Shown: positions 4,002-24,826 of the stretch, one piece after another | How positions within the stretch are numbered: the stretch's first letter is position 1 | Layout: each line of letters begins with the position of its first letter | Assembly: GCA_001789205.1 (NCBI GenBank) | Contig: MFYT01000007.1 | Location: forward strand, 3,848-67,847 | Reading direction: 5' to 3' | From: Candidatus Raymondbacteria bacterium RIFOXYA2_FULL_49_16 | GTDB lineage: Bacteria; Fibrobacterota; OXYB2-FULL-49-7; XYB2-FULL-49-35 | DNA length: 64,000 nucleotides | Position numbers and translations under genes: made by a program | The notes under the pieces: model-generated | Databases searched by the model: none | Seen by the model: the letters and a program-made list of their open reading frames with translations, nothing else | What the model was told of the DNA's origin: nothing

Positions 4002-5393
4002 ATGGCATATGAAAAGATACTCGTCATTGCTCTGCACAAGCATGGCGATAATGTGCAGGTTACCCCGCTTTTCAAAGCGCTGAAAGAGCTCTATCCCGGA
4101 GCGCACCTGGCGTGCCTTGTTGAAAAAGGCTATTCTTTTGCCTTTGAGAACAACCCCCATATCGATGAAATGGTCCTCTTTGACCGGACCAATCCCGCGT
4201 TGGCGCGTCAATGCATCACGAACGGGGAATTTTCCCTGGTAATCAACCGCCAGAGCTCGGCAGAGGGCGCTGACCTGGCAAGCCTGGCGCGTTCAGCTAA
4301 GATACGGGGAGTGCACCTCGATGATACGGGAAGCATTGTCATTGACGATCCCTGGACCAGGCTCCTCTTTGCCCTGGTAAAAAACAGGCGTATCAATCCC
4401 TTCAACCTGGTCGATTATGGCCTGCATGTCGCGGGCGCTCATACGGGCGAACGGCGCCTCGATCTCTATTTTGATCCCCATACGGCTGACGCATATGCCG
4501 CATTGCTTCGTGCCAGGTCAGAGGGGCCGCTCCTTGCCGTACAGGCGGGGTCGCAGGCTGAATACCGGAAATGGCCGGCGCAGAGTTTTCTCCAGGCCAT
4601 TAAACGCCTGCTTCTGCGCGGTCCCTGCACTGTGGCGCTTCTCGGTTCATCGGAAGACTACCGCGCAAACCAGGAGATAGTGGCGGCAATACCTGGCCAT
4701 CTGCGCGCGCGGGTCATTGATACCTCGGGTATTGTGACCTTGCCCATGCTTCCGGCGCTGCTCAAAAAGTGCGGCCTTCTCATTACCAACGATACGGGTC
4801 CCATGCACATTGCGGCTGCTGCGGGTTGCAAGGTGCTGGCGCTCTATTTTGGCGGTTCGTTTCTTTCTGAAACCGGGCCTTATTCTCCGGGAAACCTCAT
4901 TTTATGCGGCCGCATGGATTGCCTGCCCTGCGCCTTTGGCCATGAGTGCAAAAAGGCGTATGCGTGCAAGGAAATGGTGTTGCCGGACCAGGTCGCTGAG
5001 CTTGCCGCCTATGGCGCGGGAATGGCTGATACGGTGAATGAGAAACTTTTTGCGCAGGGCATGGTTTATTGTTCGCCGCACAAGGCCTGGGACCAGCCCC
5101 TGGTCTATTTGCCCTTTTTCAGGACACGCCTTGGCAGCGATGAACTCACGCGCCTGGTACTCTACGGCGCCCTTTCTTCAGCACTGCTTCATACGCCAAT
5201 CGATGTCCGCGTTTTTGCCAGCCGGATTGCGGCCTGTTACACCAATGCCCGGCAAGCGTTCAACGCGCCTTTTTCCGTTCCATTGGACCTTTTCCATCCG
5301 GTGTTTCCCCATGCGGGCCATTTGGCCCAGTTTGGAAAGACGGTTGTTGAAACCATGGAAGCATTGCGTTCGGCCCTTGCCGCCGTTGCCTAG
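4002..5393 (+). CDS. glycosyltransferase family 9 (heptosyltransferase-like) with ~130 aa C-terminal extension
   Basis: ILVIALHKHGDNVQVTPLFKALKELYPGAHLACLVEK at the N-terminus. LLITNDTGPMHIAAAAGCKVLALYFG nucleotide-sugar motif and a CLPC...C cluster. Confidence 0.75.
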   Translation: MAYEKILVIALHKHGDNVQVTPLFKALKELYPGAHLACLVEKGYSFAFENNPHIDEMVLFDRTNPALARQCITNGEFSLVINRQSSAEGADLASLARSAKIRGVHLDDTGSIVIDDPWTRLLFALVKNRRINPFNLVDYGLHVAGAHTGERRLDLYFDPHTADAYAALLRARSEGPLLAVQAGSQAEYRKWPAQSFLQAIKRLLLRGPCTVALLGSSEDYRANQEIVAAIPGHLRARVIDTSGIVTLPMLPALLKKCGLLITNDTGPMHIAAAAGCKVLALYFGGSFLSETGPYSPGNLILCGRMDCLPCAFGHECKKAYACKEMVLPDQVAELAAYGAGMADTVNEKLFAQGMVYCSPHKAWDQPLVYLPFFRTRLGSDELTRLVLYGALSSALLHTPIDVRVFASRIAACYTNARQAFNAPFSVPLDLFHPVFPHAGHLAQFGKTVVETMEALRSALAAVA

Positions 5394-6304
5394 GCGCGCG
5401 AGCGTTTGCGCATTTTCTTTTGTTCCCGCTGGTATTGGAGCTCCTGATAGAGTTGGGAGAAATTCTGGGTAGTGAAGGACATTTCCGAACCCAGGATAAT
5501 GATAAGCGCAAGCATAAGGAGCGAGACAATAAAGACCGGTAGAATGCTGAGTGAACCGTAAAGCTTGCTATATGCGAATGTTTCGCTGATAAAGTATTTG
5601 AAGATGATACGGCCTATTTCATAGAAAGCAGCGGCGAGAATGCCGCCCATGAGCGCGGCGCGTTTTTTCACCTGCGCGCGCGGCAGGCGTTCATAGAGAA
5701 TGGAAAAAGCGAAACTTAGGAGAAAAAACGAAAAAATGCGGCCGGGAATTTTGATTATCAGGTTTTGTTCAAGAATAAAGCCCTGGACGCGCACGGAAAG
5801 GGAGAAAACCGCGGTAAAGAAAATGATGATGAATGTGATGAGTCCTAGCCTTCGGTGATATGGCCGCGGTTCAGGTACGTTCCAGGTCACATTAAATATG
5901 TCGATGAGCAGATCGACCAGAAGCACCAGGGTAATGATAAAGATGCCCGTCCCAATCCATCCCACTGTCATGGCGTTCCCCGCAAATGAGGCAATGTACT
6001 GGTTGATCTCTTCAGAGGTATAAGGGAGAATCTTGAGAATGAAGGCATTGACTTCCTGTTGATTCAGGAAGAGTTGTATTTTCAGTTTATTCAGTTTGTA
6101 CAAATGGTTCATGAAAAGCGACAAAGAAGCGATGAGCGGTATGACCGCGAAAAGGAGCGAATAGGCCAGGGCCGAGGACCTCATGAAACCTTTTTTCTTT
6201 CTAAATTGGATGAGCGTCAGGAGTATATATATGTATATTACTTTCAGGAGCCTGAAAGGCAGAATGACGATCCTGGAAAATATTAAGAATCTGAAAAGGC
6301 GCAT
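5390..6304 (-). CDS. YihY/BrkB family inner-membrane protein
   Basis: RSSALAYSLLFAVIPLIASLSLF signature followed by about 6 TM segments. The stop overlaps the convergent GT9 stop at CTAG. Confidence 0.7.
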   Translation of the reverse strand: MRLFRFLIFSRIVILPFRLLKVIYIYILLTLIQFRKKKGFMRSSALAYSLLFAVIPLIASLSLFMNHLYKLNKLKIQLFLNQQEVNAFILKILPYTSEEINQYIASFAGNAMTVGWIGTGIFIITLVLLVDLLIDIFNVTWNVPEPRPYHRRLGLITFIIIFFTAVFSLSVRVQGFILEQNLIIKIPGRIFSFFLLSFAFSILYERLPRAQVKKRAALMGGILAAAFYEIGRIIFKYFISETFAYSKLYGSLSILPVFIVSLLMLALIIILGSEMSFTTQNFSQLYQELQYQREQKKMRKRSRA

Positions 6305-6925: not shown

Positions 6926-8572
6926 ATGATTAAAGAATTCGGCAAATATAGCATTGAAAAGGAATTGGGCAAAGGCGGTATGGCAACCGTCTATCTTGCC
7001 ATGCACCGCGACCTCTATCGCCATGTGGCGCTCAAGATAATGCATCCCCATCTTGCTTCCGAGGAGCAGTTCCGGGTGCGCTTCGAGCTTGAGGCGCGCG
7101 CCATTGCCCAGGTTGAACATATCAACCTTCTCCAGGTATATGATTATGGGAAACAGGGCGACCACTACTATATTGCCATGGAATACATCGATGGGGAAGA
7201 AGCGGAGCAGCTGGTAAAAAAACACGGTCCTTTTCCCGCGGAAGTGGCCGCGGTCGTGTTCCATGGCGTGGCAGCGGGGCTCAGCGAGGCGCACAAGAAG
7301 AAGATCATCCACCGCGACATCAAACTCTCCAATATCATTATAAAAAACGATGGTCTGGTCAAACTTTCTGATTTTGGCATTGTTAAAATGGAGGATGTGG
7401 CCGGTCTTACCAACACCCAGGATGTGGTGGGCACACCCTACTATGTCTCACCCGAACAGATCCGTGGTGACAAACCATCGGCCCAGTCCGATATCTTTTC
7501 TCTGGGCGTGTCCCTGTATTTCGCGGTAACGGGCAAGTTCCCCTTTACCGCGCCCACTATTCCAGCCATCTTCAATCTGATTTCCCAGGGAAATTATACG
7601 CCAGTCAGGGAGACCGGCATCTATGTGCCCGACGAGTTGGCGTTTGTCATCTCGAATTGCCTGGAAAAGGAGCCCCGGAAAAGGTACGACACTGTGGCAC
7701 GGGTGGCAGAGGAATTGAACGCCTTTCTTCACCGCCACGAAATTTCGAACGATAAAGACCTTGTCGAGAACTACCTAAAAGACCCCAAAGGCTTTGCCGC
7801 GGGTCTCAAGGTGCGGAGTATCACCACCAAAATCACCAGGGGCAAGTCCTTTCAGGAAAAAGGGCTGATTTTTGAGGCGCTCAAGGAATACGAATCCATT
7901 CTGCAGCTCGATCCCGGGAACAAAGAGGTCAAGGAGCATATTGTCCAAATCCGGCAGGCAAATCCAGTGACCCAAGACACCAGCGTGACCCTCGACACCA
8001 TCCTGGTGCCCAGGAGAAAAAAGACCGGCCTTATGGTCGCGGGAGTAGCGGCCTTTTTGCTGCTCTGCGTCATGGGCGCGGGCATCTATTATTCGCAGCA
8101 GCAACGCCAGCACGAGGCCGTACGTGCCCAGGAACGGTGGGACTCGCTTTCCGCCCTGCGCGAGATCGACACTATCATGTTTCCCGCGTTGCCCCGTCCT
8201 GAGGCAGTGGCAGTTGCGGCAAAAGCTCCTCCATCTGCTCCCAGAAAGGCGATGCAGAAAAAAATCATTGTCCCGGCCGATGCCAGGCCCGCACCTCTGG
8301 CCGAAGCCAAGGCCGATACCCCAACGGTCCAGCCGGCACAGCCTGCGCATGAGTGCTTTGGGTATCTTTTTGTTTTTTCTGAAGTATGGGCCACTATATT
8401 GCTTGATGAAAAAGATTATGGAAAATCGCCCACAAAAACCAAGATCAAAGTGCCCTGCGGCGAATATTCCCTGCGGCTCGAAAGCCCCGGAGGAAAACGG
8501 TACACTGCCCGTGCGGTGATTACCGAGGAACAGACCACCCGTTTCCAGGTGGGACAGGCAGATTTTCAATGA
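6926..8572 (+). CDS. membrane Ser/Thr protein kinase (Hanks type) with TPR-like segment, one TM helix and a PEGA-like C-terminal domain
   Basis: GKGGMATVYLA, VALKIM, HRDIKLSNIII, DFG and YYVSPEQ. TM helix MVAGVAAFLLLCVMGAGIYY. The start was moved from the track ORF (6797, overlapping thpR) to ATG 6926 just before the Gly-loop; an upstream TTG start cannot be excluded. Confidence 0.9.
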   Translation: MIKEFGKYSIEKELGKGGMATVYLAMHRDLYRHVALKIMHPHLASEEQFRVRFELEARAIAQVEHINLLQVYDYGKQGDHYYIAMEYIDGEEAEQLVKKHGPFPAEVAAVVFHGVAAGLSEAHKKKIIHRDIKLSNIIIKNDGLVKLSDFGIVKMEDVAGLTNTQDVVGTPYYVSPEQIRGDKPSAQSDIFSLGVSLYFAVTGKFPFTAPTIPAIFNLISQGNYTPVRETGIYVPDELAFVISNCLEKEPRKRYDTVARVAEELNAFLHRHEISNDKDLVENYLKDPKGFAAGLKVRSITTKITRGKSFQEKGLIFEALKEYESILQLDPGNKEVKEHIVQIRQANPVTQDTSVTLDTILVPRRKKTGLMVAGVAAFLLLCVMGAGIYYSQQQRQHEAVRAQERWDSLSALREIDTIMFPALPRPEAVAVAAKAPPSAPRKAMQKKIIVPADARPAPLAEAKADTPTVQPAQPAHECFGYLFVFSEVWATILLDEKDYGKSPTKTKIKVPCGEYSLRLESPGGKRYTARAVITEEQTTRFQVGQADFQ

Positions 8573-16994: not shown

Positions 16995-17630
16995 CTAGAA
17001 CAGCAGCCCTCCTGAAATCGCTACCTTGGAAACGGTCTCACTTTCAATGTTATGGTAGCTAAAATTAAAATTAAGCAGGATTCGTGTTCCGGTGAACGGA
17101 ATGGCATAGCCTGCCCCTGCAAGAAAACCGAAGCCAGCGTCGCTGCTGGAGGCGTTGCCAAAAGTAGTTTGGACCACCATCCTTGCCAGACCAAGGTCGC
17201 CGCGGAGGAAAAACCCGTCGCCGATATTGCGGCTGACGAAGTGCATGACACTGGCCCCGTAAATGTATTGGTTGATTTGGACCCATATGCCTCCTTCAGA
17301 CACACGGTCGCCAGCGCCGTTTATAATGAACCCTATGGCGGTCCGGTGCTGGTTGACGGGGAAGTAAAATCCAAGAAAATCAAATTCAACGCATGTACGG
17401 CTTACTCCGGGAATATTTTCAATAGTGTTCATCAGTTCCTGCAAATTCTTTGGATAGGTAATACCAGTCCATCCCAGGCCCCAATAGGTGTACCAGGACT
17501 CGTTTTTTGTCCGCAGATTGGTTTCGGCAACAAATTCATTATCACCCGGACTAGCAAGTGTTTCCTCTTGGGCAATCGGGTAAGACAGAGCTGCAAACCC
17601 AATGATCAGCACTGTCAGGAGGATTTTCAT
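16995..17630 (-). CDS. outer-membrane beta-barrel protein (hypothetical)
   Basis: Signal peptide MKILLTVLIIGFAALSYPIAQE, alternating beta-strand pattern and a terminal ...ISGGLLF. The track ORF's 72-aa N-terminal extension was rejected. Confidence 0.6.
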   Translation of the reverse strand: MKILLTVLIIGFAALSYPIAQEETLASPGDNEFVAETNLRTKNESWYTYWGLGWTGITYPKNLQELMNTIENIPGVSRTCVEFDFLGFYFPVNQHRTAIGFIINGAGDRVSEGGIWVQINQYIYGASVMHFVSRNIGDGFFLRGDLGLARMVVQTTFGNASSSDAGFGFLAGAGYAIPFTGTRILLNFNFSYHNIESETVSKVAISGGLLF

Positions 17631-17924
17631 TCGGAACCCCTTTGGTTTTTGTGGTGTGGCCATTGCGCTATTCAGTACCTTTATACATGCTGCGCCAGCG
17701 TTACTTTTAAGTAAGATTATATTTCCGTCAAAGAAAAAGCAAACTTTTTGTTTCAGTTTAACATCGGCCAAAAAATTCCGTTTTCTCATGCGCCTGCGTC
17801 TCTGGAAAATGGTCATTTTTTTGCCTAGGCCCGAGATTCGCGCCAACTGCCTAATATTGTTTTCTGCTTAACTAATATTTAAAGCAGGAAAAATTTGTGT
17901 TAAAAAAGACAGAAGAAATATTTG

Positions 17925-19073
17925 CTACGGCAGAAATGTCTTAGAGTGCTTCAGCTTGTACGGCAGGTATTCGTCCATCACATAGTTGAGCGTATGGGCC
18001 GCAAAGGCCTGTTGCTCGGCGCGTACGCCCATTTCAATCAACTGATTAATGGCTTTTTGCCATTCTTTGTGGTGTTTGAAGAAGGGATCATTTTTCAGCG
18101 CATCCTTTGCCCGCTTAATGTCCACTTCCTGCAATGGATGCGTGGGAAGCTTAAAATCTTTGATGTCCTGTGGCGTAACCCCTAGGTATTGCGCATGGGG
18201 TACGCAAAAGAACCTGTTGATGTGCGCCGCGTTTCCCGAACCAACCTTGAGAGTACGGTATATATTGGAAAAACCGTAGGGGTCGCAGTCAACAAACGCG
18301 TAGACCGGGAGTTTGCATTGTTCTGACAGTCTGCGGACAAACCGCCGGGTTGCCCGGGTGGGTACGCCGCCCAGCGAAACCAGGATGCAGTTGGCTTTTG
18401 CCCAGTATTTATGGCTTTGGAGCCGCTGAAAAATACCGCCAGTCTCAATCGCCAGGACGAATTTCGCCTTGGTCTCGAATTTCAAGTGTTCATTCAGGCT
18501 GGGAATGGAGTAGGCGCCCGATCCAAAGCGTGTACAATCGATTTTCTCGATTTTCCCGCTTTCAAGGTCTTTGTCGTATACGATGAGCTTGCCCGCAACC
18601 GCACCGCCATGCTCTTCCGGAATAAATCTGAGTTGTTCGCGTGATACTTCGTATATAGAGAACATGGCCTCAATATCATCCATGACCGTGTCCGACTCTT
18701 CCTGCTCGTCAAATCGCGCCTCTTCCCAGTTTTTTGACTGGTAATACGCGTCCCTCTTTGTGGCAAAGTCATTTGTTTCAATAAGGCCTTTTGAGAGCGA
18801 CATCATGCGCAGGGTCTGGGCAAAGGGTTTTACCGTGCTTACCGAAAGCGTGCGTGATTTTTTTTGGTTCAGGATCTTAAAAAAGCCCTCGGCAGCGTCG
18901 TATCTTACATTGGAAAGCGCGCGCAGGGGGAAATAGAGCGAGGGCGTGGTTTTTTTCAAGATTTTACCATGGATATCTGACGCGGTTTTTTTAATATATC
19001 CGACAATTTGTTTGTCGTTGATCTCGGGTCTGATGTCCAATGTTATCTTACGTTCCTGCTTTTTTGGACTCAT
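17925..19073 (-). CDS. top6A: DNA topoisomerase VI subunit A (Spo11/Top6A)
   Basis: KRDAYYQS (catalytic Tyr position). Toprim motifs FVLAIETGG and [10 protein letters not shown]. 382 aa. ATGA overlap with top6B. Confidence 0.9.
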
Positions 19074-20656
19074 ATGGCCCTCTTTTTCTCAAGCACTTCG
19101 GTGAGGGTGGTTACAGCCCGTTTCACCTCTTTTTCATTCAGGCCAAGGATGTCCTTGAGCGCAATACCGATCTGAGGGATATAGGTCTGGATGTAATTTA
19201 TTTTTTGGAGCGCATCGGCCACTCGCCGTTTGTGGCTTATGTGGGCGGAAATTTTTCTGCCGCACTCCTGGAGAGCCAGGCGCATCTCCTTGATGACCTC
19301 ATCATAGCTGGCAATAGCTTCTTTGCTCTCCGAAGTGAAAGGCACCCAAACCGACGCCATATGCACCATGATAACCAGGGGACCGGAAGGCAGGGCGCCT
19401 CGCGCCTGATCGAGACCGTAGTTTTTCCAGTCAATGCCCTGCACAGTTTTGAAAATGGCGCAGGCAGACTGCTGGTAGAGGAGGGGAACGCGGTTGGCAA
19501 ACCTGAATACCTGGGCAAGCTCGTCACCCGGCAGTTTTCCCCCATAGGCAATCCCCGCCTCTATCTGGAATGGGTTGCCGCGGTATACGGAAGGCGGTCT
19601 GGTCGTTGCCACGAATATCTCAGCTTCAACTTGCTGTTTGAGTCCGCTGACAATAAGATCCTCGCCAATGGGCGAAATGCAGTCAGTGGGTGGGTTCATT
19701 ATTTTTACTTTTTGTATGGCCCTGAATAAATTGTCAGCCTCTTTGAGTGCAATGGCCTTGGGCGATGCGTTGGGATTCAGGTTCGCGGCAGCGCATATTT
19801 CCCCTGCTACCTTTGAGCTTACACGCGAAAAGTCTGACTGTAACGCGCCTTTGAGCGCGCGTGAGTTGGTGGTTTTGAGCATCTTCATGAGCATACCCAA
19901 TTCAACGCCATATGGATGCGGCTTGATCTCCTTTGGCGGAAGCGGCAGCTGTTTTACACTCCGGATATATTCTGCCTTTTCCTCCCCGGTAAGCAGTTGG
20001 AGAGTATAGGTGATGGAAACGTGCGGGTTGGCAATGGCTGTCTGGCGGACATATTCGTCAACCGATGAACGGCCCTTTTGGTATCTTCCTTCCAACTCGA
20101 TTTCAACCAGAGTGCCGTGGTCTTTTGGCCAGTCCATCTCAATATCACGCAGAATTTCTGGTTTGTTTTGGGTTGTATTCAGATGCAGATGGTAATGGTG
20201 CGCGGGTTTGCCTTTGCCTATTTTCGAGGTTATCTTAATTGGCTGGCCTGTTGTAAGCTGCCCGTACATGCCGGCCGCTGAAATACCAATGCCCTGTTGG
20301 CCCCGTGACATCTTCATTGAATGGAATTTTGAACCGTAGAGCAGTTTGGCAAAGATATTGGGTATCTGGTTTTTAACAATGCCAGGACCGTTGTCTTCCA
20401 CAGACATTGAAAAGCGATCTTCGCTCAATTCTTTGAGGGTAACCGTGAGATCAGGTAGAATGCCAGCTTCTTCGCATGCGTCGAGGGAATTGTCCACGGC
20501 CTCTTTGACAGCGGTCAGAAGCGCGCGGCGCGGGTTGTCGAATCCGAGTAAATGCCTGTTTTTGGAGAAAAATTCAGAAACAGAGATGGTCCTCTGTTTC
20601 TCCGCCATTTGTTCCGCGTCAGCGTAGACGTTTTTCTGTTTCTTAGGCACCGGCAT
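19070..20656 (-). CDS. top6B: DNA topoisomerase VI subunit B (GHKL ATPase)
   Basis: Bergerat-fold boxes [19 protein letters not shown] and [11 protein letters not shown], with a transducer-length C-terminus. 528 aa. Confidence 0.9.
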
Positions 20657-20903
20657 CTGATACTTTGGCGCTCAAATTGGCGAGTTGTTCCGCCAGCATC
20701 TTTTCGTAGTTTTGTCCCAGCACTTCCACTTTTTTCATGTAGCGAGTGCAGAAAGTTGCCACGTTGGTCAGCGCTTTGGCGTTCAGGTCGTCGATGAGCT
20801 CTTTCAGTGAGTTGATGTTGAGTATTTCGTTTGTTGAAACTTCGAAATAGATGTTGGGACGGCTGGTAATGCGGTTCTGGATGTCGGACGCCATGAGAAC
20901 CAT
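20643..20903 (-). CDS. hypothetical 86-aa protein, overlaps top6B start by 14 nt
   Basis: ORF only, with no recognised motif. Its frame stays open 147 nt upstream of its ATG (see findings). Confidence 0.4.
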
Positions 20904-20959
20904 GTCAGCGATGATGGATTCATTGCTTTCGTCTGTTTTGAACAGATCGATACCTTTAA

Positions 20960-21658
20960 TTAGCTGGTCGACCAGATATCTGCCGTTAAAGACATATTTC
21001 CGGGCGTTTCTTCGGCGGGCGCTTGCACTGTTTCCTGTTTGGACAGCGTCTCAATTGGCGTCTGGTTGGGTGACGCCGCTGAAACTACCTGAGCTGTTGC
21101 GACCTCGTCCTTCAGGATAATGACTGTGTAGAGGCTGTCGATGACCTCTTTCTCGTTGGTTGAAAGCTTCTGGAACAAGGTCTCGCTTTTTTCCTTGACC
21201 TCTTTTTCCTTAAGCCTGAGCTTTTCCTGCTTTGCCCTGAGAAAATCGATCTCCTGGGTGCATTCTTCCAGTTCCTGTATTATTTGGGCGAGGTCTTTCT
21301 GCCATTTCCTTTTTTCGTCAATAAGCTTCACGGATTCCTTGCCGATGGATTTGAGGCGCTCCTCTTTTTCGCGCACGTTGTCTATTTTTTTCTGGTAGTA
21401 GTCAATGAGCATGTCGATGGTTTTCGCGTCTTCCTCGCGTCCGCTTTTTTTCAGCAGCCACAGTTCCTCAAGCGCCCGCTTGCTGTTCTCTTTCTCACGC
21501 TCAATCATGCGCCCGGAAATATCGAACATGTTTTCCTGGCCGCGTTCTGTCTCGGCTTTTTTCAGGGCGTCAAAAATGCGGTTGTTGCCTGCCACGGGAG
21601 AAGCCGGCCCATTTATGGTGATTGGAGAGGGAACCCACCTTTTTTCATTTTCTTCCAT
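20960..21658 (-). CDS. hypothetical coiled-coil protein (first gene of the Topo VI operon)
   Basis: Long K/E/L heptad-rich segment (EELWLLKKSGREEDAKTIDMLIDYYQKKIDNVREKEERLKSIGKE...LRAKQEKLRLKEKEVKEK). Start set at ATG 21658 (AGGGG 8 nt upstream). The track start at 21691 is a GTG lying at or upstream of the predicted transcription start. Confidence 0.5.
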   Translation of the reverse strand: MEENEKRWVPSPITINGPASPVAGNNRIFDALKKAETERGQENMFDISGRMIEREKENSKRALEELWLLKKSGREEDAKTIDMLIDYYQKKIDNVREKEERLKSIGKESVKLIDEKRKWQKDLAQIIQELEECTQEIDFLRAKQEKLRLKEKEVKEKSETLFQKLSTNEKEVIDSLYTVIILKDEVATAQVVSAASPNQTPIETLSKQETVQAPAEETPGNMSLTADIWSTS

Positions 21659-21694
21659 AACAAACCCCTGTCTATGGTTGAATGCCTTCACTAT

Positions 21695-21723
21695 AATATA
21701 AATTTGCAGAGGGGAATTGTAAA
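21695..21723 (-). promoter_or_regulatory. sigma-70-like promoter for the coiled-coil/Topo VI operon
   Basis: Minus strand reads TTTACA-17 nt-TATATT. Confidence 0.5.
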
Positions 21724-22759: not shown

Positions 22760-24826
22760 ATGAGACAATGCGTCCTTTCCCTGTTTTTGCTTTCATCCAT
22801 CGCATGCGCAGGCGGGTTAACAGGTCATACGGGAACAAATATCGACATCTACTGCGCGGAATTCACTCCTGAAATGGTCACGTATCTTAAAACCCTGAAT
22901 GCCAAGTGGAACCTCAATAGCGGATGGAGCAAATACCGGACTATAACGTTTGGTAACAGCATCACGGTTGACGGCAATCACTGGTCGCCGCTTGCGAATA
23001 ACGTCACCGGTATTGCGAACGCCACGGACATCAACGCATTCAAGGATTCCACCATCAACCTGGGTACATGGATAGCAAACGGCAAGGTCGCGGAGAGCGG
23101 TCGCACTATACAATGGGTCTCCAAACAGGTCGCCTCAGCGCTTTCAAACCGCAAGCCCATGTTTGCGGTGATAATGATAGGCACCAACGATATTTCCATC
23201 AGCCATCCGCCTGCCGACCAATGCGAACCGTCGAATGACTGTTGGGGAGATACGGTGCATTACAAACAAATCACCGACCAGCTTATCAATGTTGGCGTCA
23301 TTCCTATTATAACCACCATTCCTCCAATCGATTTTTCGCTTATGGGCAATGCGTCAAACAGGGAACCCGCGTTGAGGGCATACAACAATAATCTCCGAAC
23401 CTTTGCTGAAAACCACAAGTTCCCTCTCATCGATCTCCACCGGTGGAGCGATGACCACGGTCCTGTATCAGCCCTTTTAGGCGATTGGGCGCATCCGTCT
23501 GGATGTAGCGACGGATCAGCCAGCTTTTCCGACAATTGCCTTGACGGTGGTTCGTCCGGCGGGCTTCAAAACGTGCGTAACTATATGATTATTATGGCTG
23601 TTAACGACTTGATACGATATGTGGTTTTTAACGAACCTGTTCCGGTGGACACTATTCCCCCCGGTGTTGTTACAAACCTTTCCGCAATAACCGGCGCGGG
23701 CAATGGAACAGTGGTTCTTTCCTGGACCGCTCCTGGCAGTGACAGTACCGGCGGCCGGTATGTCCGGTCCCTTGATATACGATATTCGCAGAGCAATATA
23801 ACAGAGCAAAATTTTTCTTCTCTTCCCAGACTGCCTAACATTCCCAAGCCGGTCTTGTCCGGCACCTTGCAAAGCATGAACGTCCTCAATCTCACTCCGG
23901 GACAAACCTATTATTTTGCCATGAAGGCCGCGGACCGTACCGATACCAGCGCTCTCTCCAATGTAGCGAGCGTGCAGGCCAGGTCTGGACTGCCGCTGGT
24001 GAAGGACAGCGTACGCCTCGATGCCTATCAGGATACTTATTTCAAAAAGAACGAAACCGACAACAAGGGCGGCCTTGCTTGGCTTTCGCTCAGTTCAGCA
24101 TATAATGGAATCACCTATTTGCGTTTCGATATGTCCGTCTGTACAAAAATGCCCGATTCAGCGGTCATTGTTTTGCAGCCCTGTGAATGGGGCGCCACCA
24201 CGTTCCAATACACGACAGTGATCCGGCCCGTGACCAAAGCCATGACCGAAGACGCCTTTTTTGCAGGAGGGCCCATTGCCTTCTGGCTAGGAAACGCCTT
24301 GGAATATCCTTCAGCATCATATACAGGCCCCTATAACGGCCAGACCAAGTACTATTTTCCCGTTGCGCGTGAAGCCATTCAGATGTATGCGCAGGGAACG
24401 GCCTATGGCCTTGCCATTATCAATACAGACAGCGCCAATGCGGCCAATCAGTTCTGGAGCAAGGACCGGGGGGCCGCTGAAAGTCCCTATATGATAGTGT
24501 ATTCGGGATTGGACAATGTTTCCGCCGAACAGCCGGATGACTTTTCCGTTGGTCCGGCAATACTCACAGTCATGCCCAATCCATTCAATCCGTCAACTAC
24601 AATAACGATTTCGAATTGCAAGTCGCACATTGCGGAAGAGGAATTGAAAATATACAACGTTAAAGGGGAAATGGTTGACGATTTGTCCTTATTGATTAAC
24701 AACGCAGAATTTCCAATTCGTAATTCCATCATATGGGATGCGTCCCGCCGGCAAAGCGGCGTGTATGTTGTCAAGGCAAAGATTGGTGGCCAGGTTCTGA
24801 CAAAGACAATTACGTTTCTTAAATAA
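22760..24826 (+). CDS. secreted SGNH/GDSL-type hydrolase with Fn3-like and beta-rich middle domains and T9SS-type C-terminal sorting domain
   Basis: Signal peptide [23 protein letters not shown] blocks [15 protein letters not shown] and GDWAHPSG. Tail is [14 protein letters not shown]...[22 protein letters not shown]. Confidence 0.75.

Follow-up and report, generated by a model that had tools for sequence, protein, structure and literature searches.

A stretch of 64,000 nucleotides (nt) from Candidatus Raymondbacteria bacterium RIFOXYA2_FULL_49_16 (contig MFYT01000007.1), referred to here as the window and the frame for all coordinates below, encodes both subunits of DNA topoisomerase VI (Topo VI), in the genes top6B and top6A, behind a gene that we call X. 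We conclude that X is one gene, that its appearance in the window as two open reading frames (ORFs) was created by a 145-bp deletion seen in this contig only, and that X is most plausibly an operon neighbour and expression platform for top6B and top6A, not an obligatory subunit of the enzyme. We put the probability of this whole reading at roughly 70%. The identification of Topo VI itself is right, and the kind of enzyme was already known, so that the novelty is in the host lineage and not in the system. What remains of interest is a clade-restricted X-top6B-top6A cassette and the uncharacterised X family, with an operon, defined here, that encodes a TPR protein, X, an AraC-type protein and a transglutaminase (TPR-X-AraC-transglutaminase).

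The initial annotation placed two separate genes upstream of top6B, one encoding a coiled-coil protein and one encoding 86 aa. The 86-aa ORF (20643-20903) is as described, with a stop codon that overlaps the start of top6B by 14 nt. However, both its open frame and its homology reach about 110 nt further upstream than its ATG (20903). This homology begins at RNARKYVFNGRY and overlaps the 3' end of the coiled-coil ORF in a different frame, indicating that both ORFs derive from a single gene. Apart from itself, the coiled-coil ORF recovered only two relatives, with lengths of 397 and 416 aa, each running into a C-terminus like that of the 86-aa ORF, and the homologues P0002, P0003 and P0004 are single proteins of 397-416 aa that span both ORFs. 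In tblastn alignments, about 48 codons, including a conserved block, are missing from the window between the two ORFs. The coiled-coil ORF ends at 20960, and its first ATG, at 21658, matches the start of the homologues ('MEENEK'); a mechanical list of ORFs extends it to a GTG at 21691.

Sibling assemblies contain the intact gene. At least 23 contigs, from independent assemblies in NCBI, ENA and JGI, encode a Top6B identical to that of the window. The long contigs among them, L071-L073, have one uninterrupted ORF of 386 aa upstream, which shares 14 nt with top6B. The window aligns to these contigs (blastn) as two collinear blocks that are offset by 145 bp and otherwise 99.96-100% identical, and in the 3' part of X the DNA matches that of the intact gene at 100% identity. 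The deletion removes QAEPQGPLPSIYKTYKQVEQTRFPKSVVKTDRGRILGEYYYDPKVYK and has the junction microhomology A(G/A)ACGC. Because 145 is 3n+1, the frame shifts: past the junction, the last 12 codons of the 5' part are out of frame and lead to a premature stop at 20960-20962. The lost DNA encodes 'FPKSVVKT..GRILGEYYYD', the strand region in which the C-terminal domain is best conserved. X would thus have been inactivated in this contig by a microhomology-flanked deletion that left two apparent ORFs (Table 1).

Taken literally, the two ORFs could be two small genes, each encoding a candidate Topo VI subunit. Both are open, gene callers call both, and the 86-aa gene is also called in another assembly, L074. 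We regard this reading as virtually untenable, since every intact homologue is a single protein across both ORFs, the homology to the C-terminal domain continues, in the frame of the 86-aa ORF, upstream of its start codon, and the DNA missing between the ORFs encodes the best conserved part of that domain. Homologue length, tblastn frames and the sibling contigs together refute two separate accessory genes, and we replace them with one 386-aa gene, broken here by a deletion. There is a methodological lesson in this, as two "novel accessory ORFs" proved to be a single gene, disrupted by a deletion that only one assembly has.

The split of X could also be an artefact of assembly or consensus, in which case the organism has an intact X like its siblings. 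We consider this possible but somewhat unlikely. In a collection of 15 billion proteins, the 232-aa fragment is present on 1 contig (98,852 bp, the window's own), against 15 contigs for the intact protein (P0092, 386 aa, 4 NCBI accessions). In addition, two other assemblies (L074 and L075) break their contigs exactly at the deletion site, and L074 begins with an inverted piece of 141 nt (positions 1-141), which is joined at an inverted repeat of 13 nt, features that mark the site as hard to assemble. The repeat, CGCCCGGAAATAT / ATATTTCCGGGCG, lies inside X (arms at 20994-21006 and 21510-21522), and one arm abuts the deletion junction. Against an artefact, the microhomology at the junction is 4-6 bp, a length typical of deletions by replication slippage or through microhomology and far below the k-mer length of an assembler, the flanks are otherwise collinear and identical, and a mixture of both alleles would itself break the contigs of other samples at this site. 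The short microhomology favours a real deletion allele, whereas the contig breaks could reflect either allele heterogeneity or assembly difficulty, and the site with its repeat is possibly a rearrangement hotspot or an assembler artefact. We set aside an invertible segment, suggested by the 141-nt junction in L074: because the length of the piece equals the k-mer size, it is probably an artefact of an assembler run at k=141.

Table 1. Coordinates of the Topo VI genes, the parts of X and the candidate promoter in the window
Feature	Position	Strand	Basis
top6A, 382 aa	17925-19073	-	Pfam PF21180 3.6e-60, PF04406 1.5e-15, PF20768 3.8e-15
top6B, 528 aa, GHKL ATPase and transducer	19070-20656	-	NCBIfam NF003218, TIGR01052; Pfam PF09239, PF02518
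3' part of X, fragment of the C-terminal domain	20643-21014	-	tblastn with P0002 (residues 276-391) and P0003 (residues 296-409)
5' part of X: N-terminal motif, long coiled coil, start of linker	20960-21658	-	identical to residues 1-220 of P0092
Deletion junction, 145 bp relative to sibling assemblies	21004-21009	-	blastn against L071, L072 and L073
Sigma-70-like promoter candidate, TTTACA-17-TATATT	21695-21723	-	consensus scan, 10/12 matches

X belongs to a real and conserved family that is undescribed and absent from Pfam. In an exhaustive HMMER search of 1.84 billion representative proteins, the family comprised 89 clusters, 77 of them with E <= 1e-10 and most of them 360-480 aa long with the same architecture; for members linked to an AraC-type gene, full-length matches reach E values as low as 1e-60. 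The family is restricted to Fibrobacterota and Raymondbacteria. A typical member has about 390 aa: a short motif at the N-terminus is followed by about 140 residues of coiled coil, then by a variable, disordered linker, and finally by a conserved domain of about 140 residues at the C-terminus. Its signature combines N-terminal helices ('ALEELWxLKK...YYQxKxDxxRxKEE') with a C-terminal motif ('FPKSVVKT..GxxxGEYYYD...HFEISTNEILN...LGxNY'). All of these elements are present in the intact sibling allele, P0092, and the window has all except the 145 deleted base pairs. The AlphaFold2 model of X, from an alignment of 42 sequences, has a pLDDT of 95-98 for residues 40-186 and 250-390, which are separated by a disordered linker. 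Residues 40-186 are predicted to be helical, including one helix of about 115 residues, and the hydrophobic periodicity of this region (3.55) is like that of a coiled coil. Residues 250-390 are predicted to form an alpha/beta domain, which is mildly basic in most members.

The initial annotation recognised no motif in the upstream ORFs, and our searches of X for domains and folds were likewise empty. Pfam, NCBIfam and PADLOC models matched nothing above threshold in X and 42 relatives, and a search of PDB sequences with the family profile returned no relative. A Foldseek comparison of the high-confidence model with the PDB found no fold relative (best E about 1). All that these searches gave was noise from coiled coils or helical bundles. 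We therefore reject a known domain in X, and the C-terminal fold, although confidently predicted, is without a solved relative. The same searches (Pfam, NCBIfam, PADLOC and PDB) revealed no sequence or fold similarity of X to RHL1 or BIN4. These plant proteins almost always co-occur with eukaryotic Topo VI and are reported to be absent from bacteria and archaea (PMC11302465). The only idea that X shares with them is that of an extra non-catalytic protein beside Topo VI. Unlike them, X is restricted to one clade, occurs mostly without Topo VI and has no detectable similarity to Pfam families or solved structures.

The distribution of X argues against an obligatory role in Topo VI. An obligatory subunit should be found wherever the enzyme occurs, and its family should be found only with the enzyme. 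Outside the Raymondbacteria/Fibrobacterota lineage, none of the 27 bacterial top6B loci with upstream sequence to check has a homologue of X upstream of top6B, and none has a gene that abuts the top6B start. These loci come from about eight phyla (Eisenbacteria, Gemmatimonadota, Latescibacterota, Planctomycetota, Verrucomicrobiota, Kiritimatiellia and unclassified bacteria). Within the lineage, X is broken in two of the seven lineages in which it is linked to Topo VI, the window organism and L004, and top6B and top6A are intact in both. Conversely, in a metagenome scan for X loci, made with an alignment of a 13-member subset, about 60 of the 62 family loci were without top6B and top6A: the two with these genes nearby were the two closest, and the others had none within up to 8 kb. 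We therefore reject a general co-occurrence of X with bacterial top6BA. The proposal in the initial annotation that the upstream frames encode Topo VI accessory subunits is largely contradicted by the absence of X beside other bacterial top6AB genes.

Most members of the X family have a different set of neighbours. A membrane protein of the AraC type (HTH_18) is encoded directly downstream of X in 46 of 68 loci, at a median distance of -9.5 nt, a TPR protein is encoded upstream in 34 loci and a Transglut_core protein is a neighbour in 31 loci. About 85% of the family has no link to Topo VI, and this TPR-X-AraC-transglutaminase arrangement is the usual, and probably the ancestral, context of X. 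The operon is found in Fibrobacterota-like metagenome contigs (L081-L137; e.g., L087 6417-9820 and L115 6278-11597), often with a gene for a solute-binding protein further upstream. A tree of X places every Topo VI-linked member in a single clade, which also includes the unlinked L141 and L143; the remaining members are AraC-linked. X in the window is of the same family as X in this operon, and one of its linked relatives, L001, keeps the upstream TPR gene. In contrast, the clade that includes the window has top6B and top6A downstream of X, and the upstream gene in the window encodes a nucleoside hydrolase. No homologue of the AraC-type protein or the transglutaminase is encoded in the linked loci, after top6A, or anywhere in the 64-kb window. 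A simple insertion of top6BA between X and a surviving AraC-type partner is thus rejected, as there is no such partner downstream, and replacement is more likely.

The order X-top6B-top6A is found in seven lineages of one clade, usually with overlapping frames. The X/top6B junction is at -14 nt in the window organism, -11 nt in L001/L003 and in L004, -8 nt in L002 and L145, and +18 nt in L144, and X is adjacent to top6B in L079. The genes on either side vary: a nucleoside hydrolase upstream and an outer membrane protein (OMP)-like protein downstream in the window, a TPR protein and a 305-aa unknown in L001, and a LacI-type protein and a 551-aa unknown in L145. These differences suggest that the trio travels as a unit. 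The promoter candidate TTTACA-17-TATATT is likely the promoter of X-top6B-top6A, judging from its sequence and position. The initial annotation had put the upstream frames behind this one sigma-70-like promoter; the site is present, and sister loci have a -35-like hexamer at the same position (TTGACA, 55-85 nt upstream of X in L001, L079, L141, L143 and L144). In L004, a Fibrobacterota metagenome-assembled genome (MAG), X is a pseudogene (5054-6011) with 77 N-terminal residues missing, an in-frame stop and a frameshift. The 3' two-thirds of the gene, which overlap the start of top6B, are retained there, and may be kept for signals needed in top6B expression.

Based on these results, we propose that promoter, X, top6B and top6A form one operon whose genes would be co-transcribed. 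X would be an older gene, specific to the lineage, that has a promoter of its own and tends to overlap the gene downstream. In one clade, top6BA would have taken the slot behind X, replacing the genes for the AraC-type protein and the transglutaminase, and would since have depended on the X promoter and on translational coupling to the X stop codon. Such dependence could be enough to keep the three genes together without a physical partnership. The top6B and top6A products would form the canonical A2B2 type IIB topoisomerase of the established bacterial Topo VI clade. Topo VI of archaea needs no protein beyond A2B2 for activity in vitro (PMC11302465, PMC8837201). This activity and the loss of X in two linked lineages suggest that X is dispensable for Topo VI and not an obligatory subunit.

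Several observations weigh against an operon neighbour of this kind and in favour of a second explanation, that X was co-opted in the Raymondbacteria/Fibrobacterota clade as an accessory or regulatory factor of Topo VI. For example, X could be a dimeric coiled-coil adaptor that tethers or gates A2B2, in a role like that of RHL1 and BIN4 but unrelated to them. Seven lineages have kept the trio despite differing flanks and a divergence of X down to 37% identity. In six of the seven, the stop codon of X overlaps the start of top6B by 8-14 nt, and such coupling is often seen for interacting proteins. Intact X keeps the near-invariant residues of the family in the three members of the linked clade that were aligned, which indicates that X is under selection there, without its usual AraC-type and transglutaminase partners. 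The periodicity of the long helix is heptad-like, the C-terminal domain is mildly basic in most members, and alternative accessory proteins for bacterial Topo VI are a matter of explicit speculation in the literature (PMC11302465). Furthermore, the two broken copies may say less than they seem to. The deletion in the window does not prove that X is dispensable, as it could come from a rare strain allele or from faulty assembly. L004 is from a long-read MAG, so that its frameshift and stop could in part be sequencing errors; its 77-residue loss cannot.

Nevertheless, we find co-option rather improbable. Two of the seven linked lineages have a broken X with top6BA intact, X is absent from the Topo VI loci of the other bacterial phyla, and the great majority of its family has no link to Topo VI. 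Its tight coupling to the downstream gene is ancestral and does not depend on which gene that is, and X has no similarity to a topoisomerase partner, a DNA-binding fold or a Pfam family. In a more specific version, X would have been recruited from the TPR-X-AraC-transglutaminase module, and would be translated together with Top6B and modulate the site or the timing of enzyme action; this is a long shot. If it were true, X would be the first known bacterial Topo VI partner, and losses in some strains would be tolerated because the core A2B2 still works.

The two large minus-strand ORFs, which overlap by 4 nt (top6B stop and top6A start), encode Top6B and Top6A, as the initial annotation stated. 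Both are full length and without internal stops, and the same B-then-A pairing is found in sister loci. Top6B scores 686.9 bits against the NCBIfam model for DNA topoisomerase VI subunit B (NF003218, cutoff 274) and 527.7 bits against TIGR01052 (cutoff 380.7), and matches the Pfam families Topo-VIb_trans (PF09239, 4.3e-61), HATPase_c (PF02518) and PF13589. It aligns contiguously with Methanosarcina mazei Top6B (2q2e_B) over residues 14-509 (E 1.7e-157). The N-box, G1 ('EDNGPGI') and G2 motifs of the GHKL/Bergerat ATP-binding fold are identical or nearly identical to those of the M. mazei protein, the 'SESK' motif with the switch lysine aligns with 'FTSESKDAIA' of 2q2e_B, and the transducer and H2TH region are present. 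Top6A contains TP6A_N, Topo_VI_alpha and TOP6A-Spo11_Toprim, with PF21180 covered over its full 170-position profile, and its best solved relative is Methanocaldococcus jannaschii Top6A (1d3y, E 2e-106). The region of the catalytic-tyrosine motif 'KRDAYYQS', in the 5Y-CAP/winged-helix domain (PF04406), aligns with TLREAYYVSKNW of 1d3y, and the Toprim glutamate ('AIETGG') and DxD motif ('FVDCDPYG') align with 'AIETSG' and 'FTDGDPYG', so that 'R-x-AYY', 'AIET' and 'DxDPYG' are all kept. The motifs quoted in the initial annotation are thus all present and correspond to catalytic motifs of the solved subunits. By analogy with the characterised archaeal enzymes, the enzyme is most likely an ATP-dependent decatenase and relaxase.

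The operon is similar in most respects to those of known Topo VI enzymes (M. mazei 2Q2E, Saccharolobus shibatae 2ZBK and M. jannaschii 1D3Y). The order of genes is the same, no domain is missing (GHKL, H2TH region and transducer in B; 5Y-CAP/WHD and Toprim in A) and the catalytic motifs are kept. Unlike the canonical operon, it has a leading third gene, and its host is a member of Candidatus Raymondbacteria. Topo VIII and Mini-A are also bacterial members of the type IIB family, but they are plasmid-borne, and Topo VIII is a B-A fusion on mobile elements (PMC4117785), whereas B and A in the window are separate, canonical-like and chromosomal.

Bacterial Topo VI is a known but poorly understood oddity. 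A 2024 survey found it in at least 17 bacterial families and concluded that there had been at least two transfers from archaea (PMC11302465). The main text of that survey does not name the Raymondbacteria lineage, and we found no joint mention of Candidatus Raymondbacteria and topoisomerases in the literature searched. We scanned one genome per GTDB species with the window Top6B as query and found 68 loci, including MAGs of Fibrobacterota, Eisenbacteria, Gemmatimonadota, Latescibacterota, Planctomycetota, Verrucomicrobiota and Kiritimatiellia. Thus, MAG data give Topo VI a wider distribution, over many FCB and PVC lineages, than is described in the main text of the published family-level survey, and the locus described here adds a candidate phylum, Raymondbacteria, with its Fibrobacterota relatives, to the range. 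In a neighbour-joining tree of Top6B, the bacterial sequences form one (FCB+PVC) clade beside a DPANN/Methanosarcinales group, a placement that matches one cluster described in PMC11302465, and the window Top6B groups with Fibrobacterota-labelled MAGs. The initial annotation had suggested a Top6A/B phylogeny as a check for transfer from archaea. The tree made here covers Top6B, which is nested in the bacterial clade, and the GC content of the Topo VI locus (0.48-0.50) is that of the rest of the window. A recent archaeal transfer of top6BA is therefore unsupported, and the absence of a compositional anomaly and the bacterial Top6B clade argue for an old, settled acquisition.

Other genes in the window are of bacterial type, including those for a sigma-54 activator, RpoB with the bacterial external domain, EF-G and SecY. 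NCBI assigns the host to the phylum Raymondiibacteriota, and its relatives are labelled Fibrobacterota. A GDSL lipase with an fn3 domain and a Por_Secre_tail, the sorting domain of type IX secretion, is encoded at 22760-24826 (plus strand) and fits a host in the FCB group. The view of the contig as bacterial is well supported by these genes; the OMP gene, which the initial annotation had also listed, is not firmly established. This gene, downstream of top6A (16995-17846, minus strand), has a weak OMP beta-barrel match (E 8.5e-4, 20 bits against a cutoff of 28.7).

Several top6 operons outside the lineage of the window contain additional genes. In Eisenbacteria-type MAGs, genes for a kynureninase (Aminotran_5 and KYNU_C) and a Cyclase-family protein (kynurenine-formamidase-like) are between top6B and top6A on the same strand (L006 7652-9500, L009 7573-9398, L011 7558-9467 and L043 1443-3300), and L010 has the cyclase gene only (7589-8212). 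These are genes of tryptophan catabolism (the kynurenine pathway). A Sedimentisphaerales MAG has a Tsp45I-type restriction enzyme and an N6/N4 DNA methylase in the same place (L044 1344-3403). We considered the Eisenbacteria genes as true accessory subunits and rejected this, since a kynureninase and a cyclase-family enzyme are unrelated to the topoisomerase. The presence of unrelated genes inside bacterial top6 operons indicates that adjacency to top6 is a weak guide to function.

The pairing of B and A also varies. In the Planctomycetota loci L020, L025, L028, L029, L032 and L035, there is no top6A within about 6 kb downstream of top6B. Where Top6B is 45-61% identical to that of the window, Top6A falls in two classes, with about 58-68% or about 29-38% identity to the window Top6A (L012, L027, L031, L033, L036-L040, L046-L056 and L061-L068 against the other loci). 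Two classes of Top6A beside similar Top6B suggest that the A and B subunits have had partly separate histories.

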